DNA from: a virus
Direction: 5' to 3' (one strand)
Virus record (IMG/VR): IMGVR_UViG_3300025771_000023
Coordinates: 7,934-71,933 of that record
Length of the DNA: 64,000 nt
Under the pieces are notes generated by a model, which worked only from the letters and a program-made list of their open reading frames with translations, was not told the origin of the DNA and ran no database searches. The translations under genes were made by a program, and so were the position numbers. Shown in pieces: positions 46,822 to 61,206 of the stretch. Each line of letters begins with the position of its first letter. The stretch's first letter is position 1.

Positions 46822-46846
46822 GGGGTTGATCCCTGAGGACTTGATC

Positions 46847-46904: not shown

Positions 46905-46909
46905 TCGCG

Positions 46910-46962
46910 GCCGCCGATTCTCAATAGTGGATGTATATTGAGAACCGGAACGGTTAGTGTTA
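46910..46962. repeat. dispersed 53-bp stem-loop repeat, copy 1
   Basis: Identical to 47545-47597; similar copy at about 48239-48285. Confidence 0.95.
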
Positions 46963-46974
46963 GAAACTAACACA

Positions 46975-47157: not shown

Positions 47158-47199
47158 TTTTTAAAGTGTGAATGTGCAGAGGTTAGTGTTACTAAATTA

Positions 47200-47457
47200 T
47201 CACAACTCCCACAGCATTTCATTCATCTCATCAGCATCAATTGCAGGGTCATTCCATGCAACGTCGTCGCCAGTTTTTTCAAGATAGCGACCTACTTGCC
47301 CGTGCATCATACAGCGGACAAACTTATCCCAAGGCGTCTCTAATCCTTCGCGGAAAGTCACACATGCTTTCGCAGTGTTGTAGAGAAATCGATCATTTTG
47401 AATCCAAAGGGCAGCATTCCAGGTTTCCCAGTTTGCCCATCCGTTGTAACCTTCCAT
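47200..47457 (-). CDS. conserved phage protein of the YNGWxNxETW type
   Basis: YNGWANWETWNAALWIQND...KTGDDVAWND. Confidence 0.8.
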   Translation of the reverse strand: MEGYNGWANWETWNAALWIQNDRFLYNTAKACVTFREGLETPWDKFVRCMMHGQVGRYLEKTGDDVAWNDPAIDADEMNEMLWEL

Positions 47458-47481
47458 TGTCGAATTCCTGAGGACTTAGAT

Positions 47482-47539
47482 ACAATAAACGATTTTGGAC
47501 CCTGTGCCCATTTTGTGTGCCACTTAGGTGATCGTCCAC
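47482..47539 (-). promoter_or_regulatory. early promoter cassette (-10 TATTGT)
   Basis: TGTGCCACTT...GTCCAC at 47516. Confidence 0.65.
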
Positions 47540-47544
47540 CGGCA

Positions 47545-47597
47545 GCCGCCGATTCTCAATAGTGGATGTATATTGAGAACCGGAACGGTTAGTGTTA
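47545..47597. repeat. dispersed 53-bp stem-loop repeat, copy 2
   Basis: Exact duplicate of 46910-46962. Confidence 0.95.
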
Positions 47598-47792
47598 CTA
47601 ACAGAGACTACTCAGGTTAACATGAACCTCCTCAACTTTGTCCCATGCATCATCAGGAAGGTCACCACATTGTGCTTCCATAAAGTCACAAACCATCTCC
47701 CAATCTGCATCAAACATTTCAACAAACAATGGCAAAGATTCCAGAGCAGAGTTGAACAAATCTTCTTGAGTTTGAGTCATTTTGATCATCAT
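47598..47792 (-). CDS. early acidic hypothetical protein
   Basis: FNSALESL..FV...DAD.EM..DF...Q; paralog of 45846-46130. Confidence 0.7.
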   Translation of the reverse strand: MMIKMTQTQEDLFNSALESLPLFVEMFDADWEMVCDFMEAQCGDLPDDAWDKVEEVHVNLSSLC

Positions 47793-47796
47793 GGTT

Positions 47797-48096
47797 TCAG
47801 TTAGTGATGAGATCGAGGTTCAGATTGTTAACACAATTCACACCAGCGTAATACGCATCCAGGAAGTTATCGAAAACCTCAATAGTTTCAGTCACTGAAT
47901 GGCGAGGATTGACCTCTGTACGAATAGCAACTGCGAACACATCCACAGTACCATCATCAGTGTACTTTGCAGAGTGAGTGAGAATCACATTGTCGTTTTC
48001 CTTGAAACGATAAACCGAACGGGTCGGAAGGTGATGAGCAGTCAATTCACTGCCAAAGTAAACTTCTGCTTTCCAACCTTGAGAGAAGAGAGACAT
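47797..48096 (-). CDS. early hypothetical protein
   Basis: Start shortened to MSLFSQGW because the longer ORF runs through the promoter cassette. Confidence 0.7.
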   Translation of the reverse strand: MSLFSQGWKAEVYFGSELTAHHLPTRSVYRFKENDNVILTHSAKYTDDGTVDVFAVAIRTEVNPRHSVTETIEVFDNFLDAYYAGVNCVNNLNLDLITN

Positions 48097-48123
48097 TTGA
48101 GAGGCGTTTTTTTCCATGCACCT

Positions 48124-48180
48124 AATATGGCACAGAATCGGGGGGTTTGGGGCGAATAGTGGACACTTGCCCAACTGGTC
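48124..48180 (-). promoter_or_regulatory. early promoter cassette (-10 CATATT)
   Basis: GTGGACACTT-GCCC-AACTGGTC at 48159. Confidence 0.7.
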
Positions 48181-48238
48181 GGGCGGCTGCCTAGTTTCTA
48201 ACACTAACCGTGCGTTTAGTTAGTGATACTTTGCGGCG

Positions 48239-48285
48239 GCCGCCGATTCTCAATAAGAGATGTATATTGAGAATCGGTACGGTTA
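48239..48285. repeat. dispersed stem-loop repeat, copy 3
   Basis: Perfect 13-bp inverted repeat CCGATTCTCAATA-N9-TATTGAGAATCGG. Confidence 0.9.
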
Positions 48286-48295
48286 CTATAAAGAA

Positions 48296-48616
48296 TCAGA
48301 GCGCACCATTCTCATTAACTTTGCCCCACACCAGTTGGTTACCATAAACACCCGCATAGTATGCACCAAAACTCACACCCATGCGCTCATCATTGTTGTC
48401 ACAATTGCGGGTAAGATTCAGACCAAAGTAGAACTTGTCGCCAATCTGATGAGGTGTGGAAAACTTAACACGGCGCAGTTGTTGATATGCTGCTCCGATA
48501 ATCACCGCGCAGATTGCACCAATGGTCATCAAATTAATCCAGAGTTGTTGATAATCAAACTCCATCACATCATCGACGAAGTTGATAGTTTGTGCGGAGA
48601 AAGTGCTGAAGTTCAT
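48296..48616 (-). CDS. early single-pass membrane protein
   Basis: Hydrophobic LWINLMTIGAICAVIIGAAY segment. Confidence 0.7.
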   Translation of the reverse strand: MNFSTFSAQTINFVDDVMEFDYQQLWINLMTIGAICAVIIGAAYQQLRRVKFSTPHQIGDKFYFGLNLTRNCDNNDERMGVSFGAYYAGVYGNQLVWGKVNENGAL

Positions 48617-48715
48617 TGTTAGAAATTGTGAACGATTTGTGGGAGAAAAATGTGCCTTTCCTCAACCACGAACTAACAATAACCCATCACCGGGGAAAAT
48701 GGGGAAAATAGTGTG

Positions 48716-48779
48716 CAGTTCCCAGATTGGCACAATCTCATGAGTCTCTCTTCAAGATCATGTGCCAATCTGGGAACTG
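48716..48779. repeat. perfect 19-bp inverted repeat overlapping an early promoter cassette
   Basis: CAGTTCCCAGATTGGCACA-N26-TGTGCCAATCTGGGAACTG. Confidence 0.9.
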
Positions 48780-48784
48780 GAAGT

Positions 48785-48973
48785 TTAAAAGATGTCTGAG
48801 TAATCCTTGATGCTAACATCAACATGCTCATCACCTTCGAGATCTAGAATATCATTCCAGTCTAGATCTTCGGGGCGAAAGTCATCATAACACTCAACGT
48901 CGAGAGTAATGCGTACGTGGCGCTTTGTGTGCATGAGCATGTATCTAGATGCGATGTTTGCGTATTCTATCAT
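48785..48973 (-). CDS. acidic hypothetical protein
   Basis: ITLDVECYDD...LDW..ILDLEGDE; ATGA overlap with upstream peptide. Confidence 0.75.
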   Translation of the reverse strand: MIEYANIASRYMLMHTKRHVRITLDVECYDDFRPEDLDWNDILDLEGDEHVDVSIKDYSDIF

Positions 48974-49143
48974 GCATAATGCCTGTATGCAAGCTCGTTG
49001 TAATCATATGTATCTCGTGCATAATCCTCGTCGAGATCATATGTATCTTGCATATTATATGATGAGTGTACGCCCATCTCGTCGAGATCATATGTATGAT
49101 CTTGTGCCTGAGTATAGTCGAGATCGTAATCGTCGTAGAACAT
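48970..49143 (-). CDS. 57-aa Tyr/Asp-rich repetitive peptide, not in ORF track
   Basis: MFYDDYDLDYTQAQDHTYDLDEMGVHSSYNMQDTYDLDEDYARDTYDYNELAYRHYA, directly behind a near-consensus promoter. Confidence 0.65.
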   Translation of the reverse strand: MFYDDYDLDYTQAQDHTYDLDEMGVHSSYNMQDTYDLDEDYARDTYDYNELAYRHYA

Positions 49144-49176
49144 GAGAGTCTCGTCGAGATGTGTGTTTACTTTATA

Positions 49177-49205
49177 AGTATATGATGATCTCGTCGAGAT
49201 GTCAA
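49177..49205 (-). promoter_or_regulatory. sigma70-type promoter TTGACA-N17-TATACT
   Basis: -35 at 49200-49205, -10 at 49177-49182; palindrome inside the spacer. Confidence 0.85.
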
Positions 49206-49234
49206 GTGTGAGTCTCGTCGAGATCCATAACCAT

Positions 49235-49242
49235 TATTTATA
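49235..49242 (-). promoter_or_regulatory. late promoter-like TATAAATA
   Basis: Exact motif between two palindromes. Confidence 0.5.
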
Positions 49243-49292
49243 AGTCTCGTCGAGAAAATGTGTAGGTCTCATGATTTTTCGCGGCGCGGCAC

Positions 49293-49321
49293 TTGACAAA
49301 CTGCGCGTCTTATGATACGCT
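49293..49321 (+). promoter_or_regulatory. plus-strand sigma70-type promoter TTGACA-N17-TACGCT with extended TG
   Basis: -35 at 49293-49298, TG at 49313, -10 at 49316-49321; no ORF downstream. Confidence 0.65.
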
Positions 49322-49470
49322 CGCTAAACTTGCATCAGGGAGGGACCTTTTCATAAGATATAAAGCATAAGATCTGGTGGTTTCAGAAGGTTTTAATGAG
49401 GTTTATAAAGCATAAGAATGAGGTGCTTTATGAGAGGTTTATGAGGTTCTTTATGAGTATTAAAAGATAC

Positions 49471-49534
49471 TTTTCCACAGGATAATAGAGGTTTTCCACA
49501 CTATTATAATACTTTTCCACAGGGTTGTGGAAAA
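49471..49534. promoter_or_regulatory. cluster of four DnaA-box 9-mers TTTTCCACA
   Basis: Direct copies at 49471, 49492 and 49513 (21-bp period), inverted copy at 49526; AT-rich tract follows. Confidence 0.75.
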
Positions 49535-49592
49535 CGAAACAAAACACTAAAACATATTTAAAATATCTTTTTAAATATAAAATTAACCAAAT

Positions 49593-49859
49593 TTACCTCT
49601 TTTTAACGTATTCCAGGTCTTTCCAATCCTCTGGATACACTACAACCAAACATCTTTCATTCCGATGAAACGTTGCATCATTGAAACTCTCTTCACTCTT
49701 CTCTCTTACCATAATCTCAAGAGTTAGATACTGTTTATGTTTATCAACAAAGTATATCCAACCCTCCATATGTTTGTGCTTTACATAATGATCTACTTGT
49801 GGCGCGTAGTGCTGATCTTGATCAATGTGAGGAACTTGTTCCGGTGGTACATAAGTCAT
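49593..49859 (-). CDS. hypothetical protein
   Basis: 88 aa; EGWIYF...YLTLEI...W.DL.YVKKR. Confidence 0.75.
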   Translation of the reverse strand: MTYVPPEQVPHIDQDQHYAPQVDHYVKHKHMEGWIYFVDKHKQYLTLEIMVREKSEESFNDATFHRNERCLVVVYPEDWKDLEYVKKR

Positions 49860-50029
49860 CAGTTATCAAGTACTGCTCTCATTCTTTTTGGAGAATAACC
49901 AAGATTTAAATATTCCTGCAATTGTTGATCACATTGTTCCTTTGTAAGTTTGACTGCATCATCTGCAATCAGTTCCCAACCAGTAGTACAGAACTCTTCA
50001 ATACGATACAATTTAATTTCTTCTGTCAT
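49859..50029 (-). CDS. hypothetical protein, not in ORF track
   Basis: MTEEIKLYRIEEFCTTGWELI...LTKEQC...RAVLDN; coupled on both sides. Confidence 0.7.
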   Translation of the reverse strand: MTEEIKLYRIEEFCTTGWELIADDAVKLTKEQCDQQLQEYLNLGYSPKRMRAVLDN

Positions 50030-50262
50030 GTTGTAAATACCTCCAGAATACCTGACTGATAATCTTCTAACAATTTAAACTTTTGGGCAGTAAGAATCTT
50101 TTCCATGATCTTACTTGTATATCCTTCATAACTATTCAATTGTTCTTCATTGACAATAGTATTAAAAGCATCATTATCATTCTCTGCAATAAGAGTTACC
50201 ATTCCACCATATTCTGATTGTGGAAATGGTACCCAGTAATCAATAATATACAAATACTTCAT
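50026..50262 (-). CDS. hypothetical protein
   Basis: YIIDYWVPFPQSEYGG; ATGA overlaps. Confidence 0.8.
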   Translation of the reverse strand: MKYLYIIDYWVPFPQSEYGGMVTLIAENDNDAFNTIVNEEQLNSYEGYTSKIMEKILTAQKFKLLEDYQSGILEVFTT

Positions 50263-50501
50263 TCTACAAAATACTCCATTTCTCCGGTTTCAAGATTGAG
50301 GGCATGATAGTCATACATATACTCATCATACTTATGACCAGTCAGATTTGTGTACTGTCGTTCCAATTCACATTTAACTGATATGAGTTGATTGTGTATA
50401 TAACTCTTCCATTCATTATCTTCTGTCAAATGAACAACATTATCCATTTGTAGAAGAGCAGACATCAACTTGTCCTTTTCAGTAAGATGCTTCATGATCA
50501 T
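50259..50501 (-). CDS. hypothetical protein
   Basis: Helical 80-aa ORF in operon. Confidence 0.7.
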   Translation of the reverse strand: MIMKHLTEKDKLMSALLQMDNVVHLTEDNEWKSYIHNQLISVKCELERQYTNLTGHKYDEYMYDYHALNLETGEMEYFVE

Positions 50502-50691
50502 ACTTTTGAGTGTTCTTGTAAGAGATGGTTTCTAAATGAGTATGAAGTTTATTATAAAGAGTTGGAACTGATCCGTGTTCTTTGGCAATACGATTCTCTT
50601 CACTCAGTTCTAATGTTTGAAGTGCAGATAAGAGTATATTAATTTCATTGGAGTTAAGATTCATTATTGTTTCGTACATGTGTCTCCTCAA
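50479..50691 (-). CDS. hypothetical protein (start probably internal)
   Basis: MNLNSNEINILLSALQ...LYNKL. Confidence 0.65.
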   Translation of the reverse strand: MRRHMYETIMNLNSNEINILLSALQTLELSEENRIAKEHGSVPTLYNKLHTHLETISYKNTQKYDHEASY

Positions 50692-50814
50692 ACATTGTAT
50701 CTATCTTATCAACAATCATAGCATAATCATTTATTTCATCTTCTGGTACAATGAAACCTTCTGCTTCGACTGCATCACGAATGATTTGTAATTCTTTCTC
50801 AGTAAAATGAATCA

Positions 50815-50937
50815 TCATTTGATTTGTGATTTGTAAAAGCGTTGAAAAGCAGTAACCAGAATAATCCCAGTGCTAATAATACCAAGTAACCCCAGAAGAG
50901 TAGTGCCATTTCCGGCAGAGAAATCGTAAGTATTCAT
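50815..50937 (-). CDS. 40-aa membrane peptide, not in ORF track
   Basis: MNTYDFSAGNGTTLLGLLGIISTGIILVTAFQRFYKSQIK; ATGA overlaps at both ends. Confidence 0.65.
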   Translation of the reverse strand: MNTYDFSAGNGTTLLGLLGIISTGIILVTAFQRFYKSQIK

Positions 50938-51149
50938 TCGTATGTATGTGTCATAGGGCAATCAAGATGAGTATTTGGTGGAAGTGTGATACAGACACGT
51001 TGTAATCGATCCGCATAATCTTCGGAACGAATGGCAAAGAATACCATGTTCACTCCAAATACAAAAAACAACAAGAGAAAGAAGTAATCAATTCTTCGAA
51101 TCATAAAGTTTTGCAATGCGATACTGATCAGTTGCAGTCTCTTTATCAT
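50934..51149 (-). CDS. small membrane protein (start probably internal)
   Basis: YFFLLLFFVFGVNMVFFAI then C..LP...H.DC. Confidence 0.65.
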   Translation of the reverse strand: MIKRLQLISIALQNFMIRRIDYFFLLLFFVFGVNMVFFAIRSEDYADRLQRVCITLPPNTHLDCPMTHTYE

Positions 51150-51315
51150 AAACCTCTACAATACTATCATAAACTTCCTCTTCTGTCATCTCTTTCATCT
51201 CTTCGGCAATCTTTAAAATTGCATACTCAATAATGGCATCTTCTTCCATTTCATCAACAAGTACAGAAGCATAATTCTCCTTGAAAAACTGCAGTTGGTT
51301 TGGAGTGAGTGTCAT
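51088..51315 (-). CDS. acidic hypothetical protein
   Basis: Paralog of 46260-46508. Confidence 0.75.
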   Translation of the reverse strand: MTLTPNQLQFFKENYASVLVDEMEEDAIIEYAILKIAEEMKEMTEEEVYDSIVEVYDKETATDQYRIAKLYDSKN

Positions 51316-51318
51316 GAT

Positions 51319-51516
51319 TCAGTTGGGAATACGGCGGACGGATTCGATATTGTGTAGGGGAAACTCTTGATGAAGATGTTGAATACAATCATCCATATCA
51401 ATACACTCCTCAATAGTAGTGAAAGTAAACTTATCAGGATTGGACTGAAGTGAAAGAATCACCTTAAACGTTTCCATGGTAGTAATCATTTTGGTTGGGT
51501 TTGGTAGAGAGATCAT
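51319..51516 (-). CDS. hypothetical protein
   Basis: 65-aa ORF with ATGA overlap. Confidence 0.65.
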   Translation of the reverse strand: MISLPNPTKMITTMETFKVILSLQSNPDKFTFTTIEECIDMDDCIQHLHQEFPLHNIESVRRIPN

Positions 51517-51773
51517 ACAGGCACAGTTGTATAAAACAATCCTGCTGCTTGCATCATCTTACACAATGTCAATTGAATCTCATCCAACTGTTCCTTCATA
51601 TCAACTTCATCTCCCATCAGTGCCATAAAGTCAACAAAGTCAAACTCTTCCAGATTGATGGTATTGTCATGATGAATTGGAGCGCAGAACAACTCACCTT
51701 CTGTACAAACAGTATAAACACAACCGTGCTCCTCAACAGTCAAATAAACACCAGAAAATTCAAGATCGGTCAT
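51513..51773 (-). CDS. hypothetical protein
   Basis: Start shortened to MTDLEFSG behind TATAAT at 51796-51801. Confidence 0.7.
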   Translation of the reverse strand: MTDLEFSGVYLTVEEHGCVYTVCTEGELFCAPIHHDNTINLEEFDFVDFMALMGDEVDMKEQLDEIQLTLCKMMQAAGLFYTTVPV

Positions 51774-51795
51774 TTGCTTTGTCTGAACTGAAGTT

Positions 51796-51854
51796 ATTAT
51801 AGAATGAATGGATCCGATTTGGGAGTGGGAATGTGCCACTCCCTGAACTGGCAT
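51796..51854 (-). promoter_or_regulatory. early promoter cassette (-10 TATAAT)
   Basis: TGTGCCACT...AACTGGCA at 51832. Confidence 0.75.
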
Positions 51855-52090
51855 CAGCAGTAGACAGGAGAGTAGTCAGAACCCTGGTATGCTTCCAGGT
51901 TGAAGTCGGTTACAGTGGCACCATTTGCAAGATACTGATTGATGTCATACATTGCATCAGACTTCACACGAGTGGTGAAAGATGTCATCTCAGTCTCTTC
52001 ACCCTTGTGCCAGATGACACGCTTTACGAAACGCTTACCGGTGCCGACGGGATAGAAGTCGATCTGAGTGGCAGAGGTTTGAAGTTGCAT
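51854..52090 (-). CDS. hypothetical protein
   Basis: 78-aa ORF behind its own promoter. Confidence 0.75.
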   Translation of the reverse strand: MQLQTSATQIDFYPVGTGKRFVKRVIWHKGEETEMTSFTTRVKSDAMYDINQYLANGATVTDFNLEAYQGSDYSPVYC

Positions 52091-52114
52091 TTGGGGTTGG
52101 TTGCTTATGTGCTT

Positions 52115-52171
52115 ATTATAGTGCCGACTGGGGCAGAGTCAGATGCCGAGTGGACAGTTGCTCAACCGTCC
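52115..52171 (-). promoter_or_regulatory. early promoter cassette (-10 TATAAT)
   Basis: GTGGACAGTT-GCTC-AACCGTCC at 52150, 30 bp from -10. Confidence 0.8.
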
Positions 52172-52572
52172 TTCATAAAAGAGTCCAGATCAACCCTTGA
52201 ACCGAAACTATAATCGTATTTCAAAGAATTTGCGCAAACATAATGCGGATGTTCCGTACTTACTCCCAGTCTTTCACAAAATTCTGAATGATTATCCTCC
52301 ATAAGTTCAACTGCATAGAGCATGTAATTCAAAACATGATCAAGATCATGATATTTGACCAGTTCGTCGCGGAGAGCGATCAGAAAGTTGCCGCTTCCCG
52401 CAGAATCGTCCAAAAATTTGGATTTGGGATCTTTTAGACTCTCTTCTGGTATGGATTGAACCATTTGAATACAAATTTCCATTGGAGTAAATACTTCTCC
52501 CGTAGAATTGATTCTTTCATCAGATCTCTCAATCTTAGATCCAACATTCTGATTATGTTTGTTTCTACTCAT
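52162..52572 (-). CDS. DNA methyltransferase SAM-binding half (motifs X, I-III only)
   Basis: GEVFTP, FLDDSAGSGNF, LYAVEL, CANSL; no NPPY. Start moved to ATG 52572, overlapping the upstream stop. Confidence 0.85.
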   Translation of the reverse strand: MSRNKHNQNVGSKIERSDERINSTGEVFTPMEICIQMVQSIPEESLKDPKSKFLDDSAGSGNFLIALRDELVKYHDLDHVLNYMLYAVELMEDNHSEFCERLGVSTEHPHYVCANSLKYDYSFGSRVDLDSFMKDG

Positions 52573-53554
52573 TTGGCATATCCGGGATGGTTTTGAATAG
52601 TTCCTTACTATTGACATTTGAAATCTTATTCATTCGAACAAGATTTTTAACTTCTTCGGACAAAAGATAATCTCTCAAACGTTCGCTTTCTTCAAGAGAA
52701 TTGGTCTTCAAACAAACTGCCGAACTACTAATCGAATGTTCATATTGCTTGACGTAAATTGCTCCAAAAGATTTCTCCGTACCTCCGTACTTACTATTCA
52801 TAATGACTCCATGTTGATTTACGCAACTGAAATGCTGAGATTCATCAACCATTGTTATAATAGGACCATTCCCCCTAAATCCTCCCATAGTCTGAACCAT
52901 AGGACAATTTCCGGGTTTTAATTCATGTAGAAAAACATCCCCTGTTTGATGACGATATGCCATGTTATTGGATACTTCAACAACATAATCAGGATTCGTC
53001 AACTTGATACAAGTCTCTTCATTCAAATACATCTCCTTGACAGTACCATCCATAAAGGTAATCTTTGTTGGTCCCCTATAACCTCTCTTCCATGTTGGAA
53101 TACAAGTTTCAGTCAAAGAAATGGTGGGAAAGGTACTCTCTGGCAAAGCTTGAAGAGATATTAATCCTCCCTCAGATCCTCCAAATAACTTCTTTCTAAA
53201 TGCAGAACCTTTCTTTGCAAAAAATTTAGAACGAATAATCATGGAAACATAACTACTTCGCTCCATTGCTCTTGCATAAAAAATACAATCTAAATCCTTG
53301 GATCCTCCACCGGAAGAAGGTCCAAGAATAGTTGATGGATCAGTATAGGGAGGATTACCAATGGTTGCAGTAAAGTCCATTGAACAATTATCCCACTTAT
53401 CAAAACTCATAGTATTATAACCCTTTTTACGAAAAAAATCAATATATCCAGGAAGAGTTGCAATGACTGTTACTTCTCCTCGTTTGGATAAGTTTTCAAT
53501 GTCAGACATTGCTCCATTTCCAGGTTCTTTTACAAGATATGCAAAACTTTTCAT
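52565..53554 (-). CDS. N6-adenine methyltransferase catalytic/target-recognition half (Eco57I-like)
   Basis: DFTATIGNPPY (motif IV), MII.SKF...G..FRK, long C-terminal TRD-like region; lacks a canonical motif I. Confidence 0.8.
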   Translation of the reverse strand: MKSFAYLVKEPGNGAMSDIENLSKRGEVTVIATLPGYIDFFRKKGYNTMSFDKWDNCSMDFTATIGNPPYTDPSTILGPSSGGGSKDLDCIFYARAMERSSYVSMIIRSKFFAKKGSAFRKKLFGGSEGGLISLQALPESTFPTISLTETCIPTWKRGYRGPTKITFMDGTVKEMYLNEETCIKLTNPDYVVEVSNNMAYRHQTGDVFLHELKPGNCPMVQTMGGFRGNGPIITMVDESQHFSCVNQHGVIMNSKYGGTEKSFGAIYVKQYEHSISSSAVCLKTNSLEESERLRDYLLSEEVKNLVRMNKISNVNSKELFKTIPDMPNE

Positions 53555-53556
53555 AA

Positions 53557-55800
53557 TCAAATCGAATCAATCAAATTGAAATCAAATAAATCTGTTGGGT
53601 GATCACAACTACCAAATCCAAAATATTTGTATTGCCCTTCGGATGATGCACTCTTGGTTAGAATCAAATTCATAAAAACCTCAGGAAGATAATCATAAAA
53701 ATGTTCAAGAATCAGTTCAGGATGAATACCAACCAAACTGAGATAATCTTTTACTTTGTCGGCATCAGATGAAATCACCATCATAGCATCCTTGAAGTTA
53801 TTTGAACCAGGAGCAAGATAGTAAACATTTCCGGCAGTCTTGATAATCGAAAGAATCTTTTCCTTGAATTTCTTGATTTTTGCCTCATTGGGATCAGAAC
53901 TTTTTTCGGAAGAAGATTCTGTTGAAATATAACTTTTTGCCGACTCAAGAATTGGTTCCCATTCTTTTTTAGTCTCGCTGAAACCACCTGTCTTGACTCC
54001 TTTTAGGAGATTATCAAGATCAATATTGGCAAACATTTTATCCCAGTCAAGAATTGAACTTGCCATGTTCTGAAGATTCTCATCAGACATTACATACTCC
54101 GAGAAATCAGAAATAGAACGCCTTGAGAGATAACCATACTCATCCTTGCGATAGAAGTTTACCAATCCAAAGACACGACGAATGGCATAATCAACATCTG
54201 AAGAATGCTTCTTCAGACTAGAAGAAATAAGATCAGTTTCAAAGTTAGAAGATCGTTCAGTATTGAATGACCAATTAATAATCAGACCTACTTTCTTTCC
54301 ACAACCAGGAGTAAAGCAGCGTGATGACTTTTGAATGGCAGAAGACATCGAACCACCATCAGAGCAGTTAATGACGGAGATGATGTTTGGAATGGAGAAA
54401 GAACGAGCACCCATAGAGCAGGATACAATAATTGTACGTTCTTTATCACTATTGTTTATCAACTTCTTGATCAAATCTTCTGCAGAGCGATTACTGTATT
54501 CATCACTGTGTAGAGCAACCCAGTTACACCACGGAGCAATACTCTTACCCAAGTTGATAAAATTATCTACATCTGCCTTGGTTGTTGGAATAAACAGCAT
54601 AACAGCGGGTTTTTCAATAGAACCATACTCTGATTCATACAAACCAAATACGTCTTGATTTGTATCTTCATCACAGAGTTCCCGCTTGATAAACTCTCGC
54701 TGAAGATGACCATTACGCTTGGAAAAGAACTTAACCATGTTAGGTCGATCTTCTTTACTCAAGTTATTATGCAAATCAATAAAAGTCTGATTAGCATCCA
54801 AAGTAAGACAATCAACCTCTACAAGATTGTCAAGTTTAGATGCCCAACTCTGAGGATCATCACAGCAAAATCCTCCGGGTTCAAACAATGGACCCTTACA
54901 CCGTTTTGCCTCCAATAGATCCAAATAAGAAACTGTAATAGGCACCTCAACTTCATGAGATCCAATCAGTGCTTTTTCAATATTGGTGCCAGTAGCAACA
55001 CAAACAAGGTTGATACCAGAGTTAATAAACTGTGATGCAGTCTCTCTGCTGGATGAAGTCCATGCTCCAAAGTCTGCCTCATCAATGATAATGAGTTTTT
55101 TATAGACTGATAACGCAGAAATCAGCACAGGATCAATCTTCTCTGCATCAGTATGCAAGGATAAATCGATTAGTACACGCTTGCCTTGAGAAATTGCTTT
55201 CTTAAATTCTTCGTATTTGGGTTTAATGACTGCAATATCAGCAGTAATATCAAAACGTTCGTTAACTGCGGATACAAAAGAATTATTTGCTGCCAACCAA
55301 TGTGCGGCAACTATCATGACTTCAAGACCAGAATCTTTGAACAAAGAAAGTGCCTGAAGAGTCTTGCCAAAACGTGGAGCAAGGTTTAGAGGTTGAGTAA
55401 CAGTACGAGTGCCATCAAAACGACTAAGAATAACACTATTGACCCATGCCTGATGAGGGCGAGGATCAAAATACTTATTGACCTTTACAACTCCATTCTT
55501 GTAATTAAATAGTTCCTTCTCCGCATCTTCTACGGTAATATAGAACCATTCACGTTCTTTGCGACTCCTTTCATAACCCAGAATTTCAAGATATTCATGA
55601 AACTCCCGATCACCAAATGATGTATAGTAACTACCCTTCTTATCTAAAGGTAAAGCACATGCAGTAGTGTCCTGCTGTTTAATACGCTCATCAACTACTT
55701 TTAATTCTGTGTCACCAATCTTGAGTTTAGGAGTCTTTCCTAAGGCAATTTGGTCTTCATACCTATCGGTGTCAGAATAAAAATAGATTTGTTTGGTCAT
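53557..55800 (-). CDS. GIY-YIG/T5orf172-like nuclease fused to SF2 helicase
   Basis: N-terminal IYFY...KLKIGDT...RIKQQ...D..FH..L...REWF; then APRFGKT, IIDEADFG, ATGT, QKSSR helicase motifs. Confidence 0.85.
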   Translation of the reverse strand: MTKQIYFYSDTDRYEDQIALGKTPKLKIGDTELKVVDERIKQQDTTACALPLDKKGSYYTSFGDREFHEYLEILGYERSRKEREWFYITVEDAEKELFNYKNGVVKVNKYFDPRPHQAWVNSVILSRFDGTRTVTQPLNLAPRFGKTLQALSLFKDSGLEVMIVAAHWLAANNSFVSAVNERFDITADIAVIKPKYEEFKKAISQGKRVLIDLSLHTDAEKIDPVLISALSVYKKLIIIDEADFGAWTSSSRETASQFINSGINLVCVATGTNIEKALIGSHEVEVPITVSYLDLLEAKRCKGPLFEPGGFCCDDPQSWASKLDNLVEVDCLTLDANQTFIDLHNNLSKEDRPNMVKFFSKRNGHLQREFIKRELCDEDTNQDVFGLYESEYGSIEKPAVMLFIPTTKADVDNFINLGKSIAPWCNWVALHSDEYSNRSAEDLIKKLINNSDKERTIIVSCSMGARSFSIPNIISVINCSDGGSMSSAIQKSSRCFTPGCGKKVGLIINWSFNTERSSNFETDLISSSLKKHSSDVDYAIRRVFGLVNFYRKDEYGYLSRRSISDFSEYVMSDENLQNMASSILDWDKMFANIDLDNLLKGVKTGGFSETKKEWEPILESAKSYISTESSSEKSSDPNEAKIKKFKEKILSIIKTAGNVYYLAPGSNNFKDAMMVISSDADKVKDYLSLVGIHPELILEHFYDYLPEVFMNLILTKSASSEGQYKYFGFGSCDHPTDLFDFNLIDSI

Positions 55801-55958
55801 AATTTTGGATTACAAATGAAGAAGTTATACTGTTGCCCATAAGTGTCCTCTGCAATTTTACAGTAGTATTGGGGAGGTGGTTCTGGCAATCTATACAATG
55901 TTACCATCGCAATGATTACCTGAATAAACGGAAGAATGAAAACAATTTTGTCTCTCAT
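55797..55958 (-). CDS. 53-aa membrane-anchored peptide, not in ORF track
   Basis: MRDKIVFILPFIQVIIAMVTLYRLPEPPPQYYC...; ATGA overlaps on both sides. Confidence 0.65.
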   Translation of the reverse strand: MRDKIVFILPFIQVIIAMVTLYRLPEPPPQYYCKIAEDTYGQQYNFFICNPKL

Positions 55959-56140
55959 GTATTAAGAGCAGTTTTCATACCAAGCAGTTTACCATAGATT
56001 TTGGCATAAAACAATCGAACTGACTTTTCTTCATCATTCATGATTTGATCCTTGACTAACTCTAACAAAGCATCAATCTCATCCCCCTGAAGATCAGGGG
56101 GAGTATTTCCATAGTGTTCTGTAACTTTCATCTTAATCAA
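55955..56140 (-). CDS. hypothetical protein
   Basis: 61-aa ORF in operon. Confidence 0.65.
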   Translation of the reverse strand: MIKMKVTEHYGNTPPDLQGDEIDALLELVKDQIMNDEEKSVRLFYAKIYGKLLGMKTALNT

Positions 56141-56547
56141 CCCTTTTTAAAGGTCAGGTAGAGATACTCACCTGCCCAATCAGCATTCTCCAGCAACCAC
56201 TCACGTTGCTCAATGATTCGCAGATCATAACGAACACCCTTGGCAGGTGCTTTGAACGATGCAGGTTTGTAGACTTCACCAGTCTTCTTATCAACAAAAG
56301 CATGGACAGAGCGAGAACCAGCACCAGTCTCCATAATGATTTTGTGATACTTACGACCACTCTCAATATAGAATTTGTAAGGATCAGAGTTAGGATGAGA
56401 CTGCTTGAAGTTGTCAACCAGAGCATCACACAGCATCAGAGTCCACTTATGAACATTCAGTTGAATGGTGTTGCGGGCATCCTGCTGGGCACAGAAGTCA
56501 GCAAAGGCGTTGGCGTCGGCACACTGGGCAGCAAAGTCGATGGTCAT
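56137..56547 (-). CDS. conserved phage early protein
   Basis: GRKYHKI...SVHAFVDKKTGEVYKPASFKAPAKGVRY. Start shortened to MTIDF behind TATAAT at 56576-56581. Confidence 0.85.
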   Translation of the reverse strand: MTIDFAAQCADANAFADFCAQQDARNTIQLNVHKWTLMLCDALVDNFKQSHPNSDPYKFYIESGRKYHKIIMETGAGSRSVHAFVDKKTGEVYKPASFKAPAKGVRYDLRIIEQREWLLENADWAGEYLYLTFKKG

Positions 56548-56618
56548 GGGTGGAGGTCCCTTTGTGTATGAACGTATTATAGGGGCATATGGGGGCGTTT
56601 CAGTGCCCCCTTTGCCAC

Positions 56619-56804
56619 TCAATAAAGTGGTTTGCGAACAGGTCGATCAAACTTAGACATTTGATAACCTTCGCGGATTGCCTGAATGATTATGTTGTCA
56701 TAAGAATGAGAGAATAATGGAATGTGACGATGCAGCAGATAATCTTCACAATCTTCTGCAAGTGCTTCTTTTTCGTCGTGAGTCAGAGTGTTGAGATCAA
56801 TCAT
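56619..56804 (-). CDS. hypothetical protein
   Basis: 61-aa ORF, ATGA overlap. Confidence 0.7.
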   Translation of the reverse strand: MIDLNTLTHDEKEALAEDCEDYLLHRHIPLFSHSYDNIIIQAIREGYQMSKFDRPVRKPLY

Positions 56805-57202
56805 ACCAGTGCTCCAGTAGGGATTTCGATAACCTGGGCAAAGGTATCGCTCCAGGTTTTAGTATCATAACAGAACCACTCACCATTTTGGAAGATATAA
56901 CCAAATTCTTCACCATTCTTAAAGAACTCAGTCATGGTTTCGTCATGACGAGGAGGGCAATCTTCGCCGCGAGCGGAGTAATACAGGGGACCAACTTCGG
57001 GCAGGGTTTCATTGTTCCAACCTGCATCAGTCCGAGCACAAGACATATCACCACCATCAATCAGTTCACGAACTTTCTCAATGGTATCATAATGAGTGCG
57101 AAGAATGCGACCATTGTAGGCAGGATAACCATTATAATGACAATAGACAGACACAATGCTGCCATCAGAGAGTTGGAGACCAATGCGTGAGCGGGTTGCC
57201 AT
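56801..57202 (-). CDS. conserved phage early protein (MxTRSxI...YCHxxGYP type)
   Basis: MATRSRIG...SVYCHYNGYP...LIDGGDMS...EEFGYIF..GEW. Confidence 0.85.
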   Translation of the reverse strand: MATRSRIGLQLSDGSIVSVYCHYNGYPAYNGRILRTHYDTIEKVRELIDGGDMSCARTDAGWNNETLPEVGPLYYSARGEDCPPRHDETMTEFFKNGEEFGYIFQNGEWFCYDTKTWSDTFAQVIEIPTGALV

Positions 57203-57227
57203 GGGGTGTTCCCTTGATTACCTCTGT

Positions 57228-57286
57228 ATTATAGGGCATTAAAAAGGGGCATCGCTGCCCCTTGTGCCGCTTATTCAACTGTCACA
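57228..57286 (-). promoter_or_regulatory. early promoter cassette with embedded terminator hairpin
   Basis: TATAAT 57228-57233; TGTGCCGCTT..AACTGTCACA from 57263; AGGGGCA-N4-TGCCCCT hairpin with a U tract on the minus strand. Confidence 0.75.
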
Positions 57287-57288
57287 CC

Positions 57289-57363
57289 TCAAGTCGATGG
57301 TGTCATTTTTCCTGCAACATAAGCAACGAGACCCAAAACTCCAAGTGTTAAAAAGATTTCCAT
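57289..57363 (-). CDS. 24-aa hydrophobic peptide, not in ORF track
   Basis: MEIFLTLGVLGLVAYVAGKMTPST; TAAATA motif upstream. Confidence 0.45.
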   Translation of the reverse strand: MEIFLTLGVLGLVAYVAGKMTPST

Positions 57364-57476
57364 ATTTGTTTTTAAATACAAATTACATTACTATTTAATC
57401 AATTTAGTATCGTTATTATACCAAAAAGTTATCATTTATACCAAAATATAAAGAAAATGTTATGTAATTCTAACAA

Positions 57477-57689
57477 TCAATCATCATATACTCTACATTC
57501 CATTGCATCAGGATGAGTGTCACAATACAACTCTAATGAGTTTGGATCGTGTTCCTCTCCAGGATGATGTTCTTTATAAACTTTGAGTGCTTCAAGTTCT
57601 TCTTCTGTGTGTCTTCTGCTTTGTGGAGAAATGGTTGGATCACTCAAAAGTTCTTCATCATGTTGAATGTGTTGGTCGATGTTATCCAT
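57477..57689 (-). CDS. cp12: CP12 Calvin-cycle inhibitor (auxiliary metabolic gene)
   Basis: C-terminal LELYCDTHPDAMECRVYDD CP12 signature; 70 aa; AATAAATA at 57716-57723 upstream. Confidence 0.95.
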   Translation of the reverse strand: MDNIDQHIQHDEELLSDPTISPQSRRHTEEELEALKVYKEHHPGEEHDPNSLELYCDTHPDAMECRVYDD

Positions 57690-57718
57690 TTTTACTTAAA
57701 ATGTCCTAATAAGAGTAT

Positions 57719-57925
57719 TTATTTGTGCTGATCACCCATTCGCTCTTCCATATAGTCAAACATACTATCAATATTGATAATACTTTCGATTGTTACAATC
57801 ATATCAGAGATATGCTTTGAGATATATGGTTTCTCGTTTCGTGCGGCAGAAACAAGAGCATTACGCAAACAAGATTCTGCATCTCGTAGTGATTCTTCTG
57901 TTTGTTTGGATAATGCCATCAACAA
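57719..57925 (-). CDS. hypothetical protein
   Basis: MALSKQTEESL.DA...LRNAL..AARNEKP. Confidence 0.75.
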   Translation of the reverse strand: MLMALSKQTEESLRDAESCLRNALVSAARNEKPYISKHISDMIVTIESIINIDSMFDYMEERMGDQHK

Positions 57926-58269
57926 TCTCCTCCTGTAATATCTTTATCTTCCCAAAACTTTTGAAATGCAGGATCCATACTTTCATACTTATGAGGAGGA
58001 GTTACGACATGAAATTTACGAAGAAGTGCCTCACCAGCATTCAGACATGCACTATGATACTGATTTCTCTCCTTGATTGCAGATACAATCGTATTATAGA
58101 TTTCATCCGTAGTTGCATCAGAATCCAGAGCATCATGGATCCATTCATTCAAATTGCGAAGAGAATAACTCTTGTAATCTTTTTCATCAGGTTTCATTTT
58201 TTGTCTCCTTTCATGAGTTTTTTGACCAATTGTGCTTTTTCCATGAATGGACTGCTCATTGTAACCCAT
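57919..58269 (-). CDS. hypothetical protein (start probably MKPDEK)
   Basis: YSL.NL.EWIHDAL...EIY..I. Confidence 0.7.
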   Translation of the reverse strand: MGYNEQSIHGKSTIGQKTHERRQKMKPDEKDYKSYSLRNLNEWIHDALDSDATTDEIYNTIVSAIKERNQYHSACLNAGEALLRKFHVVTPPHKYESMDPAFQKFWEDKDITGGDC

Positions 58270-58403
58270 CCATTCAGTTCTCCCATAATATCACGATGAA
58301 TATCATGAGCAGTAATAGACTTGTCCGTCATGTATTCGGTGATAACATCAGCAAGAAGATCCCTGCGTTCGTTGTAGTAGGATTGCTCACTTGTCGCATT
58401 CAT
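58194..58403 (-). CDS. hypothetical protein
   Basis: 69-aa helical ORF. Confidence 0.7.
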   Translation of the reverse strand: MNATSEQSYYNERRDLLADVITEYMTDKSITAHDIHRDIMGELNGWVTMSSPFMEKAQLVKKLMKGDKK

Positions 58404-58548
58404 AGTCTTTGATTGCTTGTTCTATGATAACCTGAAGTTGCTTACTTGTCAATCCATTTAACCATCCCCAGTTAGGATCTTCTTTATCCCATTCTAAACT
58501 AAAAGAACCATCTTTATTCTGATGTATTTTGAGACTATCATCCATCAT
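58387..58548 (-). CDS. hypothetical protein, not in ORF track
   Basis: MMDDSLKIHQNKDGSFSLEWDKEDPNWGWLNGLTSKQLQVIIEQAIK. Confidence 0.7.
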   Translation of the reverse strand: MMDDSLKIHQNKDGSFSLEWDKEDPNWGWLNGLTSKQLQVIIEQAIKDYECDK

Positions 58549-58714
58549 TTTTATGTTGCTTACGGACTTTTTTGAGTGATTTAAGTTCTTCTTTGATGGA
58601 TTGATATGCCTCTTCTGGTGTAATCCTTCGACTCATTTCCATGGCAATCGCAAACTCTACTCTGGTGCCAAAGTGTTTGAGTGCTTCTTCAAAGTCATTC
58701 AGTTCTTCGTACAT
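58538..58714 (-). CDS. small helical protein, cyanobacterial-like, not in ORF track
   Basis: MYEELNDFEEALKHFGTRVEFAIAMEMSRRITPEEAYQSIKEELKSLKK. Confidence 0.7.
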   Translation of the reverse strand: MYEELNDFEEALKHFGTRVEFAIAMEMSRRITPEEAYQSIKEELKSLKKVRKQHKNDG

Positions 58715-58938
58715 TTTTCACAACCCTCATTTAAAGTATCTATTCGCATTTCAAGAGTATTGATAAGATGACGATATTCTTTCATAATAATCATCATTTC
58801 ATTTTCAAGACCTTCCACACGATATTCAAGTGCTTTGATCTTTTTCTTCAATTTTTGGATCTTATCAACGTTGGAAGGGTAGACAGGTTTCATGGTAGGA
58901 CGCAAAAACCACTTAAAATACTTTGTAAATCTATTCAT
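58699..58938 (-). CDS. coiled-coil hypothetical protein
   Basis: Heptad-rich 79-aa ORF. Confidence 0.65.
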   Translation of the reverse strand: MNRFTKYFKWFLRPTMKPVYPSNVDKIQKLKKKIKALEYRVEGLENEMMIIMKEYRHLINTLEMRIDTLNEGCEKCTKN

Positions 58939-59183
58939 AAGTTTTGACTCTTCATAAATGAAACCGAATTAAACTTACCCTCGTAACCTGCAAGTTTAAG
59001 TTTGGTGTGAGATGTGTGGACTTCGGTATATTCCACAGTATATTCTTTTCCTTTGGTAAGAACACCATTGGGATCGGTATTTGCTCCCCAATTTACCATT
59101 TCAGGAGAAGAACCAATGTACTTTACAGTGTCACCCTTTTGGATTCGCATCTTTTTCAATTGATTTTTGAATTTGTTGTGCAA
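58935..59183 (-). CDS. SH3-like hypothetical protein (start probably MRIQKGD)
   Basis: GDTVKYIG...WG.N.DP...L..G..Y.V...HTKL...FNSVSF. Confidence 0.75.
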   Translation of the reverse strand: MHNKFKNQLKKMRIQKGDTVKYIGSSPEMVNWGANTDPNGVLTKGKEYTVEYTEVHTSHTKLKLAGYEGKFNSVSFMKSQNL

Positions 59184-59382
59184 GTTTGTAAGAACGTCTC
59201 CATATCATATACTTTATGATAGGATTTCGTGGATTATAAAGTATCCACCATTTGGTTTTGGCAAACCACAGTTGGGCAATCTTACTGACAAGAAGAAATG
59301 CCTGAGCAATATTCTTGTCAATGGTGATGAGATAAAGTATCAGAGCAAATAATAAAAACCACGCATAATAGGCGGTTTCCAT
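59131..59382 (-). CDS. membrane hypothetical protein
   Basis: Hydrophobic N-terminus; NP.NPI.KY.IWRRS. Confidence 0.7.
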   Translation of the reverse strand: METAYYAWFLLFALILYLITIDKNIAQAFLLVSKIAQLWFAKTKWWILYNPRNPIIKYMIWRRSYKLAQQIQKSIEKDANPKG

Positions 59383-59561
59383 TACTGAAATTCCTCATTT
59401 CTTCGTGTGTCAAGATAGGTAATGACTTCATTACGCCACTCCATTAACTCATGGAAACATTTTTCTTCATGAGCATAAGCACGAAGTTCTGGATCTGGTT
59501 TCAGAACACTTTCATAGAAAATGAAAAAGGCATCTTTGCGTTTGGTCTCTTTTTCTGTCAT
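59382..59561 (-). CDS. hypothetical protein, not in ORF track
   Basis: MTEKETKRKDAFFIFYESVLKPDPELRAYAHEEKCFHELMEWR; coupled on both sides. Confidence 0.7.
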   Translation of the reverse strand: MTEKETKRKDAFFIFYESVLKPDPELRAYAHEEKCFHELMEWRNEVITYLDTRRNEEFQ

Positions 59562-59800
59562 AGAAAATTCTCCAGAGATGAGTTTGTGTTCTTGGTTGCC
59601 TTACTACTCTTACTGATGTAAGACTTTGCCGTCTTCAAATTATTGGAGACATGGACTTGCTTTCCATTATGTATAATAACGAACTTATTTCCCCATGGAA
59701 TAGCAGCCCATACTCCATCTTTCGTTACATAACCATCGGGATCTCCAAAAACTTCATTTAAAAGACTTGGATTTGGTATGAATGGTTTCTGAAACTTCAT
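59558..59800 (-). CDS. hypothetical protein
   Basis: GYVTKDGVWAAIPW...IIHNGKQV. Confidence 0.75.
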   Translation of the reverse strand: MKFQKPFIPNPSLLNEVFGDPDGYVTKDGVWAAIPWGNKFVIIHNGKQVHVSNNLKTAKSYISKSSKATKNTNSSLENFL

Positions 59801-59940
59801 TTAAAGACACCAGTAACACTTACTACGGTTGCATTTGGATTACGTGCCAGTGCTACTTCGCGTGCCTCATCATAGTTACGAGCATGAACTTGCTCTTTAA
59901 AAGTTTTGCCAGCAACATAGAGAGTGACTTCAATCAGCAT
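59797..59940 (-). CDS. 47-aa hypothetical protein, not in ORF track
   Basis: MLIEVTLYVAGKTFKEQVHARNYDEAREVALARNPNATVVSV; GAGGA RBS; TATACT upstream. Confidence 0.75.
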   Translation of the reverse strand: MLIEVTLYVAGKTFKEQVHARNYDEAREVALARNPNATVVSVTGVFK

Positions 59941-59973
59941 TGGATTTCCTCTTGAATGAGTTTAGTATAACAG

Positions 59974-60010
59974 AAAAAAAAGAAAAAGATGGTATTTTTT
60001 ATACCATCTT
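59974..60010 (-). terminator. intrinsic terminator after helicase
   Basis: AAGATGGTAT-N5-ATACCATCTT followed by a long T tract on minus strand. Confidence 0.8.
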
Positions 60011-60015
60011 AAGAT

Positions 60016-61206
60016 TCAGCGCTTGACGACGCTGACAGCAGGTTCACCCTTCTCAAAAACCACATCAACGACTGCCTGAACCTTCTTAGCGGTGCTGATA
60101 CCCACAGAATCGTAAACGGGCACACAGACCAGTCCAAAGGTCTTCTGAGACCCTCCCAGACGAATCACACGACCGATTGACTGGGAGATGCCGATGTAGT
60201 CCATGTTCCGCATGAACAGGACTGCTTCCAGACCACTGACATTGATACCTTCTGACAAAATAGAGTGATGAAGCACCACAAACTTCTTGGAAGGATCTTT
60301 ACCCCAAGCATTCAGAGTCTCAAAGAACACCTCACGATTGACTTTCTTACCGTCAATAATACCACCAGTCTTGGCAGTAATAGTCATCCAGGAGTAACCC
60401 ATGAATGCAAGTTCGCCAATAAACTCAGACTCACTGAGAAGGCGAACAATCTGCTTGGTAGAGCGAGCACAGATCAAAATCTTATCCAGAGAGTTATCCT
60501 TGATAGTCTCCAAAAGATTCTCTGCATCGCGTTCTTGAATGAGTTGCTTACCCTTGAGCATAGGAAGTTGCTTGACAACAACCTTAGGAGGAAGAATGTA
60601 ACCACCCTCCACCAGTTCGGGAGCACCAACCTGACAGATTACATTACCATAAACCTCAGGCATGTTCATGCCAGGTTTTGCAATAGTGGCAGAATGCTTA
60701 GGAGTAGCAGTGAAGAAAAAGCAACGCTTAGCGTTAACAGAAAAATACTCTGTCGCGCCAAAGAAATTGCGCTGAACACTATTATGTGCCTCATCAAAGT
60801 AAATACAATCTACCTCAATACCTGCCTCTTCAAGTTTATGAAGGGAGTGATAAGTAGTGAAGATGATCTCATGCTCACCAGCAGTCTTACAGATGTTATG
60901 ATGAAGTTGAATCTGATTGACTTTGGTGGTGCTGAAATACTTGGTCTCACCACTATGAACGTGCATCACATTGATGCTCTTGGAAGTAAACTCTTTGAAC
61001 TCAGAGCAGAGTTGCTCTGCCAGAAGAATACGAGGAGCAACAATCACAAACGTATGACGCTTGGTTGTCATCTCCATACAAGACAAGATGTCCTCAAAGA
61101 TACACATAGTCTTGCCACCACCAGTCGGGATGATAACCTGACCTTTGGCATTGTCCCACATGGCGTTCACAGCACGCTCTTGATGGGGGCGTAGAGTGGT
61201 CGGCAT
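60016..61206 (-). CDS. SF2 DEAH helicase (ResIII-like), stand-alone
   Basis: LRPHQ, PTGGGKT, DEAH, TATP, LSEGIN, QSIGRVIR. Confidence 0.92.
   Translation of the reverse strand: MPTTLRPHQERAVNAMWDNAKGQVIIPTGGGKTMCIFEDILSCMEMTTKRHTFVIVAPRILLAEQLCSEFKEFTSKSINVMHVHSGETKYFSTTKVNQIQLHHNICKTAGEHEIIFTTYHSLHKLEEAGIEVDCIYFDEAHNSVQRNFFGATEYFSVNAKRCFFFTATPKHSATIAKPGMNMPEVYGNVICQVGAPELVEGGYILPPKVVVKQLPMLKGKQLIQERDAENLLETIKDNSLDKILICARSTKQIVRLLSESEFIGELAFMGYSWMTITAKTGGIIDGKKVNREVFFETLNAWGKDPSKKFVVLHHSILSEGINVSGLEAVLFMRNMDYIGISQSIGRVIRLGGSQKTFGLVCVPVYDSVGISTAKKVQAVVDVVFEKGEPAVSVVKR

Follow-up and report, generated by a model that had tools for sequence, protein, structure and literature searches.

A candidate two-part N6-adenine methyltransferase encoded beside a nuclease-helicase in a T4-like cyanomyovirus

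Type ISP restriction-modification (R-M) enzymes bring together a nuclease, a superfamily 2 (SF2) helicase-like ATPase, a gamma adenine methyltransferase and a recognition region, according to one description (PMC4666363), and other sources present M.AquI and M.EcoHK31I as natural two-polypeptide cytosine-5 methyltransferases (PMC3404938, PMC5944983) and note permuted M.EcoKI-like enzymes in jumbo phages (PMC7824862). Our study concerns a cassette of three genes in 64,000 nucleotides (nt) of viral DNA, positions 7,934 to 71,933 of IMG/VR record IMGVR_UViG_3300025771_000023 (hereafter the window; the full record has 71,933 bases and a completeness rating of 33%). The source is a marine T4-like cyanomyovirus: the window has a baseplate gene of gp6 type as well as a core SF2 helicase, and the nearest phage records are those of Synechococcus and Prochlorococcus myoviruses. 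The cassette has the same part list as Type ISP, and in its fused relatives an SF2 ATPase and a methyltransferase are joined in one chain. Its two methyltransferase genes carry the same motifs as the gamma-class N6-adenine methyltransferases (Eco57I PF07669 / N6_Mtase PF02384), gene 3 having X to III and gene 2 those from NPPY on. We think it somewhat probable that these two genes encode an N6-adenine methyltransferase assembled in trans and coupled to the nuclease-helicase encoded by gene 1.

Anatomy of the three genes and their fused relatives

The genes are co-directional and tightly coupled on the minus strand, in the order helicase, methyltransferase part, small part. A preliminary description made from the letters alone had reported three coupled genes of 747, 329 and 136 amino acids (aa) with these motifs, and all of them are indeed open reading frames (ORFs) of that strand with the motifs as claimed:

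53557-55800, minus strand: gene 1, 747 aa: T5orf172/GIY-YIG-like domain at the N-terminus, then the SF2 helicase core, then a helical tail at the C-terminus
55516-55767, minus strand: T5orf172-like segment of gene 1, aa 12-95 (Pfam stretch)
54319-55374, minus strand: helicase core of gene 1 (motifs in the window translation)
55360-55374, minus strand: helicase motif I, RFGKT (translation)
55072-55083, minus strand: DEAD (translation)
54985-54996, minus strand: helicase motif III, ATGT (translation)
54319-54333, minus strand: helicase motif VI, QKSSR, aa 490-494 (translation)
52565-53554, minus strand: gene 2, 329 aa, ATG at 53554, methyltransferase C-half with motifs IV-VIII
53381-53554, minus strand: cis N-half of gene 2, read as decayed, aa 1-58, with 'KEPGNG' at aa 9-14 (hhalign)
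53345-53374, minus strand: strand beta4 and motif IV of gene 2, FTATIGNPPY (translation)
52162-52572, minus strand: gene 3, 136 aa, ATG at 52572, free-standing N-half with motifs X, I, II and III
52381-52416, minus strand: motif I of gene 3, FLDDSAGSGNFL, beta1 and glycine loop (translation)

In the ORF list, gene 2 stands as 52565-53560 (331 aa, TTG start) and gene 3 as 52162-52617 (151 aa). The ATG of gene 2 follows the TGA stop codon of gene 1 by 2 nt, and that of gene 3 overlaps the stop of gene 2 by 8 nt (ATGAGTAG). Letter-for-letter identical proteins occur in other assemblies, gene 3 on 24 contigs and gene 1 on 23, and 329-aa forms of gene 2 are found likewise on 3 and 12 contigs; because the same proteins are called on many contigs elsewhere, the split is not an assembly error of this record. 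The cassette is a real, conserved module.

Gene 3 matches Pfam N6_Mtase above the cutoff (E 8.8e-5) at profile positions 23-85, which cover the N-terminal motifs only, and contains no NPPY. X, I, II and III are the standard names of methyltransferase motifs. E26, P30, G59, G61, D93 and N94 are invariant in 26 sequences of the small family, down to 29% identity. Gene 3 matches phrog_4376 (E 5e-70), a PHROG listed as of unknown function; its Atlas clusters have 100, 1275 and 84 members, Viruses 100%, and its PADLOC matches are limited to N-halves in generic models of Type I/II/IIG methyltransferases. Gene 2, for its part, matches Pfam Eco57I above the cutoff (E 1.4e-7, profile positions 62-153), and its G66, N67, P68 and P69 are invariant in 50 sequences; 54 homologues were collected. 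Its C-terminal stretch of about 175 aa is the presumed target-recognition region, and a PADLOC search with gene 2 gave no match.

These features support the view, at the level of sequence, that the two METHYLTRANSFERASE pieces are complementary halves of one kind of enzyme in permuted order. CamA of Clostridioides difficile is the best solved relative of both halves, over complementary parts: the small protein matches CamA residues 26-77 weakly (E 0.16) and the profile of the 329-aa family residues 108-288 (E 7.4e-5), with no overlap of the main stretches. The motifs are not all in one chain: they are spread over two genes with the C-half first, and the cis N-half of gene 2 is decayed. In its hhalign row, the window's gene 2 has no motif X and shows deletions in the glycine loop and first helix. 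The cis glycine loop varies among close relatives (EPGNGA, EPGKGV, DPDDGV, EPDQGV, EPGLPV, EPDPAV, EPGRGV), and only 6 of 66 partners have Gly-x-Gly within the 130 residues before motif IV, 3 of them of the window-type EPGxG. We read the cis N-half of the window's gene 2 as a decayed remnant. There are also longer relatives of gene 2 (373-385 aa) with a canonical 'DVGIGCGG' or 'PGAGIGTY'.

Longer, fused forms of the small protein escaped a word-based search; an exhaustive HMMER search later revealed them among 745 relatives at E<=1e-3, many of which are free-standing proteins of 100-200 aa. Fusions in gamma order (P0076, P0105) have the N-half and then NPPY within about 10 residues, while permuted fusions (P0074, P0098) start at motif IV ('MFNIIVGNPPY', 'MENFYVVGNPPF') and end in X-I-II-III; gp083 of Aeromonas phage PX29 is another permuted fusion. 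Since fused relatives exist in both orders, the window represents a split stage of the family. The preliminary description had argued that the reversed order of the halves excludes a simple frameshift, and these fusions, together with the near-universal co-occurrence described below, bear it out.

Co-occurrence, exchange of partners and the predicted complex

Viral contigs were scanned with the small protein, and 71 of the 80 loci holding the best 80 of 437 relatives, which share 62-76% identity with it, had at least 1500 nt upstream. An ORF matching a methyltransferase reference lies upstream on the same strand in all 71, directly abutting the small gene in 41, and the motif-IV pattern is also present in 70, the exception (L038) being a 1113-aa ORF that matches the reference and not the pattern. 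The reverse survey, from the 329-aa family, found the small gene downstream in 27/28 loci, and the single miss has just 2 nt of downstream flank. A survey of this kind was among the checks named in the preliminary description, and both directions agree with the pairing that it proposed.

The partners are alike only around motif IV, while the small protein is kept at about 60-76% identity. The layout differs from phage to phage: S-CAM7 (319 + 448 aa, methyltransferase, small gene), Bellamy (helicase, methyltransferase, 187-aa ORF, small gene), ACG-2014f (small gene, 200-aa ORF, methyltransferase, helicase), MA01 (1074-aa helicase-methyltransferase fusion, small gene), S-SKS1 (459-aa protein, small gene), P-SSM2 (gene 036, a 193-aa pure C-half starting 'MKFTLAIGNPPY', then the small gene) and Klebsiella phage KpV477 (GIY-YIG-NPPY fusion, gene 030, LEM-3_GIY-YIG 1.9e-15; 110-aa ORF; small N-half). 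The partners upstream of the small gene fall into the following classes:

10/71 loci: partner fused to a helicase
19/71 loci: 81-180 aa before motif IV
10/71 loci: 26-80 aa before motif IV, the class of the window
23/71 loci: an extension of 181-320 aa
8/71 loci: pure C-half starting at motif IV, under three reference types
1/71 loci: unclassified

Partners that start at motif IV and have no cis half also make up 6/28 loci of the reverse survey. On a quick maximum-likelihood tree of the small proteins from the 71 loci, at least 23 changes of partner class are needed; the smallest number possible is 4, shuffling gives a mean of 40.5, and 0/200 shuffles came as low. Two pairs of loci show where the exchange occurs. 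Between L064 and L070, identity is 96.5% over a stretch that begins about 40 nt ahead of motif IV and includes the small gene; upstream of the junction L064 has the T5orf172-helicase and the cis N-side, and L070 a 263-aa extension unrelated to them. L075 is L083 with about 2.5 kilobases lost (the helicase and cis N-side); this deletion stops about 26 nt short of motif IV and leaves an intact 273-aa C-half that abuts the small gene. These junctions indicate that the seam between beta3 and beta4 is the site of cutting, permuting and recombining.

A complex prediction for the products of genes 2 and 3, another check proposed in the preliminary description, passed its controls and pairs beta1 with beta4. 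The three runs gave ipSAE values of 0.75, 0.72 and 0.72 (controls 0.01, 0.48 and 0.00), a mark reached by 58/80 solved complexes and 2/110 mismatched pairs, counts that apply only roughly here, as the prediction was run on our own alignments; the pLDDT of the partners did not fall below 76, and the runs had at least 60% of their contacts in common. The lowest-error contacts join gene 2 residues 61-64 (beta4) to gene 3 residues 51-55 (beta1), strands that are neighbours in the single-chain enzyme fold. The predicted interface comprises residues 57-70 of gene 2 and, in gene 3, residues 51-58 with motifs X and III; no confident contact involves residues 1-56 of gene 2.

Some further observations concern these loci. 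The S-CAM7 records KU686213, KU686212, NC_031927 and MT586120 have two matches each to the small protein. In Prevotella megaphage Lak-A2 (L113:1924-3420), read with TAG as glutamine, a small N-half of 158 aa (2944-3420) and an ORF of 286 aa that starts 'MSNAPY' stand back to back; neither ORF has a Pfam match, and megaphages that use another genetic code may share the pairing. At L044, a 185-aa ORF that resembles a GIY-YIG homing endonuclease by eye (3802-4359, minus strand) lies about 470 nt upstream of a pure C-half, and an opposite-strand 114-aa ORF separates that C-half from the small gene. A 197-aa ORF lies between methyltransferase and small gene at L020 (5408-6001) and likewise at L023, L024, L027 and L031, and is unrelated to the Bellamy-type 187-aa ORF. 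The Bellamy-type ORFs of 187-200 aa (alignment A6, L012-L086), which always lie between or beside the methyltransferase and small gene, have invariant E55, D87, D91 and Q106-x-K108; by eye these ORFs (Bellamy gp87 type) were taken for PD-(D/E)xK nucleases, an assignment dropped for want of any Pfam family or PDB match, and that they could be nucleases is a guess at the level of motifs. Two other assignments found no support: the S-SKS1-type N-extension, by eye, as GIY-YIG-like (0/16 by Pfam, with hhalign matching the methyltransferase part only) and P-SSM2 gene 038 as ParB-like.

The nuclease-helicase gene and the surroundings of the cassette

Of the two domains that the preliminary description had assigned to gene 1, the SF2 helicase with the variant motif VI was located by its motifs and by a Pfam Helicase_C match (E 1e-5, 26.2 bits against a cutoff of 23.5), and the T5orf172-like domain scores just under its Pfam cutoff. 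Among gene 1 and its 13 relatives (alignment A4), T5orf172 is matched in 6/14 sequences at E<=0.01 (best E 2.6e-6) and ResIII in 7/14; the N-terminus of the family matches T5orf172 / MUG113, not Mrr. Y6, R39, H68 and E84 of the T5orf172-like segment are invariant or nearly so in this alignment, and K146, D240, E241, Q490 and R494 of the helicase core are invariant. In PADLOC, gene 1 matches only PDC-S57 (E 1.3e-4), on aa 26-97 of the T5orf172 part. Searched against the PDB, gene 1 alone gave only two chance-level FkpA chains and no kinship with LlaGI / LlaBIII, and the family profile only DEAD-box chains (best eIF4A-III, 5.6e-6) and no Type ISP enzyme.

The single-chain phage relatives of the helicase-methyltransferase have about 1040-1070 aa. 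In L064 (1069 aa) and L084 (1063 aa) a window-type T5orf172-helicase is fused to a window-type methyltransferase, including its N-side ('AKEPDP'/'AKEPGRG'), and genes 1 and 2 are thus functionally linked, being one chain in these two loci. MA01-type proteins fuse a related helicase to a methyltransferase, and further fusions occur at L028 and L007. A dedicated helicase is found in 39 of the 71 small-gene loci and none in the others, the loci being read by class, so that it is an optional addition to the methyltransferase pair. Restriction-like attack, processive methylation and mobility of the cassette are all possible roles for it.

The cassette is surrounded by small accessory genes in the window. 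By megablast, neither the cassette nor 46000-63000 had a close relative among phage records, and the borders of the island could not be drawn; single-protein scans of viral contigs gave no matches, a scan for promoters and terminators found 15 promoter-like sites against 14.9 expected, and Rfam had no match in 43000-57000 of the window. A second SF2 helicase (60016-61206, 396 aa, ResIII 4.6e-23) is of a type ('Bel_hel407' matches) that occurs near the small gene in many related loci, and looks like a core gene marking this variable region. Elsewhere in the window, 44001-46000 has 52% G+C against 30-44% in the rest and may be recently acquired DNA; it holds no long ORF, with one of 148 aa at 44127-44573 (minus strand). 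Two giant minus-strand ORFs of 3948 and 2396 aa (27495-39341 and 18693-25883), presumably structural or fibre proteins, adjoin the gp6-type baseplate gene, and a 207-aa phage protein at 61281-61904 matches the membrane-anchor domain YadA_anchor (E 1.2e-7).

Competing explanations and comparison with known systems

The reading that we favour goes beyond the observed anatomy, co-occurrence, fusions and breakpoints. Gene 3 would be the intact S-adenosylmethionine (AdoMet)-binding half of a gamma-type N6-adenine methyltransferase, with motifs X, I, II and III and strands beta1-beta3, and gene 2 would be the catalytic half, from NPPY to motif VIII, with a C-terminal region that presumably reads the DNA site. 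The two would assemble without a covalent link, beta1 of gene 3 lying against beta4 of gene 2, into one rebuilt Rossmann-fold catalytic domain. The small subunit would be a conserved, virus-specific part serving very different catalytic and recognition partners, which phages would exchange by recombination at the beta3/beta4 boundary, and gene 1 would work physically with gene 2. Assembly of the halves and methylation of adenines in phage DNA are what we infer; least surely, we would suggest that a nuclease driven by ATP acts on unmethylated DNA, as in Type ISP enzymes.

Several points weigh against this reading. One unrelated control in the complex prediction reached 0.48, and halves of split enzymes tend to pass such a test through their likeness to solved single-chain enzymes, so that the model speaks for compatibility and not for binding. 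The 80 and 28 loci contain near-copies, with 66 different small sequences among the 71; the T5orf172 match of gene 1 itself (PF10544, E 0.0017, 19.2 bits) falls just under the cutoff of 20; and no PADLOC-DB 2.0 or NCBIfam system matched the components of the cassette. Two further points concern the cis N-side of gene 2. Many partners keep a DPxGxH[ST]...WEND pattern there, which might still bind AdoMet, and L116 (376 aa, with a canonical motif X and 'PGAGVGTY' as motif I) has the small gene directly downstream. A metagenome scan for such long forms returned L114-L116 only, two of them with flank, and L116 is the 1/1 evaluable case; its pairing implies that absence or decay of the cis half is not the only setting in which the small protein is kept. 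This leaves two readings: the small subunit works with any partner, however intact its cis half, and whole genes decay some time after they arrive, or the small protein has a further role. The preliminary description had called motif I of gene 2 vestigial, and we too read the N-side as decayed; the pairing at L116 was unforeseen, as was the finding that this N-side is genuinely homologous to the small protein (probability 95.3% and E 2e-8 by hhalign, families A2 and A3).

It is on this homology, on the E-P-G-x-G that the N-side keeps, on the conserved DPxGxH[ST]/WEND pattern of the relatives and on L116 that one could build the view that gene 2 is a self-sufficient methyltransferase, using its own short N-side, and that gene 3 is an accessory, for instance one that regulates it, adds a second AdoMet site or helps it to dimerise. 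We consider this rather unlikely: the window copy has no motif X, the glycines of the loop vary among close relatives, partners in 8/71 and 6/28 loci lack a cis half altogether and begin at motif IV, the breakpoints fall exactly before beta4, and the model places beta1 of the small protein on that strand. The at least 23 changes of partner architecture on the 71-protein tree, the sharp recombination and deletion junctions, the recurrence of T5orf172/GIY-YIG (6/14 relatives; KpV477 gene 030, 1.9e-15) and the position of the module among small accessory genes might instead point to a mainly selfish mobile element, spread by its nuclease-helicase in a homing-like way and shielded in its carrier by the methyltransferase, with no role in defence or attack. 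Such an explanation seems unlikely, as the small gene is stably kept across all 80 loci and no target-site or intein/intron-like context was seen, and it is in any case compatible with a split enzyme rather than opposed to it. That the small protein acts alone as a counter-defence factor, for example by sequestering AdoMet or by poisoning the host's assemblies of Type I/IIG methyltransferases, while its adjacency to gene 2 is incidental, would fit its far greater conservation than that of any neighbour, its restriction to viruses in the listed Atlas clusters and its PADLOC matches to N-halves of Type I/IIG methyltransferases. This is very improbable in view of the near-universal adjacency to an NPPY gene in both survey directions, the covalent fusions in both orders and the translational coupling of gene 3 to gene 2. 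Finally, the visible decay of the cis N-half might suggest that all pieces are functionless remnants of a once whole gene, an idea with hardly any credibility left: it is already contradicted by three intact frames, the same sequences on many contigs of other assemblies, catalytic and AdoMet motifs invariant across 50 and 26 sequences, and an arrangement conserved in several phage genera.

The trans-assembled methyltransferase leaves room for several functions. The preliminary description had proposed a heteromeric ATP-dependent R-M-like machine; the complementary halves and the link to the helicase support its architecture, while restriction found no such support, with no PADLOC system and no Type ISP match. 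An R-M-like function is plausible, if on the doubtful side. More speculative, and in our view possible rather than likely, is the broader picture in which T4-like phages combine a constant AdoMet-binding subunit with an open-ended set of exchangeable modules, swapped at the seam for rapid change of specificity, which with the nuclease-helicase would form an ATP-dependent R-M machine directed against the host or a rival phage, and which would represent a living intermediate of permutation by fission and fusion. Should the products of genes 2 and 3 indeed make up one enzyme, it would be a naturally occurring amino-methyltransferase divided across the Rossmann sheet of its catalytic domain, with a cofactor half common to unrelated partners, and nature would offer the stages of circular permutation (gamma-order fusion, split, permuted fusion) next to one another. 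It would also explain a large family of 'hypothetical' small phage proteins, with Atlas clusters of up to 1275 members, warn that genome annotation misses such enzymes, and offer a natural two-part scaffold comparable to the hand-built ones used to engineer targeted methylation. The association with the nuclease-helicase raises the idea that lytic marine phages have restriction-like weapons of their own.

We found no description of this split in the open-access full texts searched, supplements, subscription journals and REBASE being outside that scope. From the gamma class, with which it shares its motifs, the cassette differs in having two polypeptides in reversed order (IV-VIII and recognition region, then X-I-II-III) and a decayed second N-half left on the catalytic chain. 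The order of motifs along the DNA is the same as in the circularly permuted amino-methyltransferases (beta-class order); unlike in those enzymes, the parts in the window are separate genes, and the permuted fusions are relatives of this locus, not the locus itself. Type ISP enzymes are single polypeptides with an Mrr nuclease, whereas here three genes, with a T5orf172/GIY-YIG-like nuclease, are found in a phage of lytic type. M.AquI and M.EcoHK31I likewise make a DNA methyltransferase from two gene products, the pair described here being predicted from co-occurrence and a model. They are C5 enzymes that are cut in or near the variable region or motif IX. The candidate enzyme of the window, in contrast, would be an amino-methyltransferase whose cut falls within the Rossmann sheet, after motif III and before motif IV, and its small part is common to many unrelated partners.

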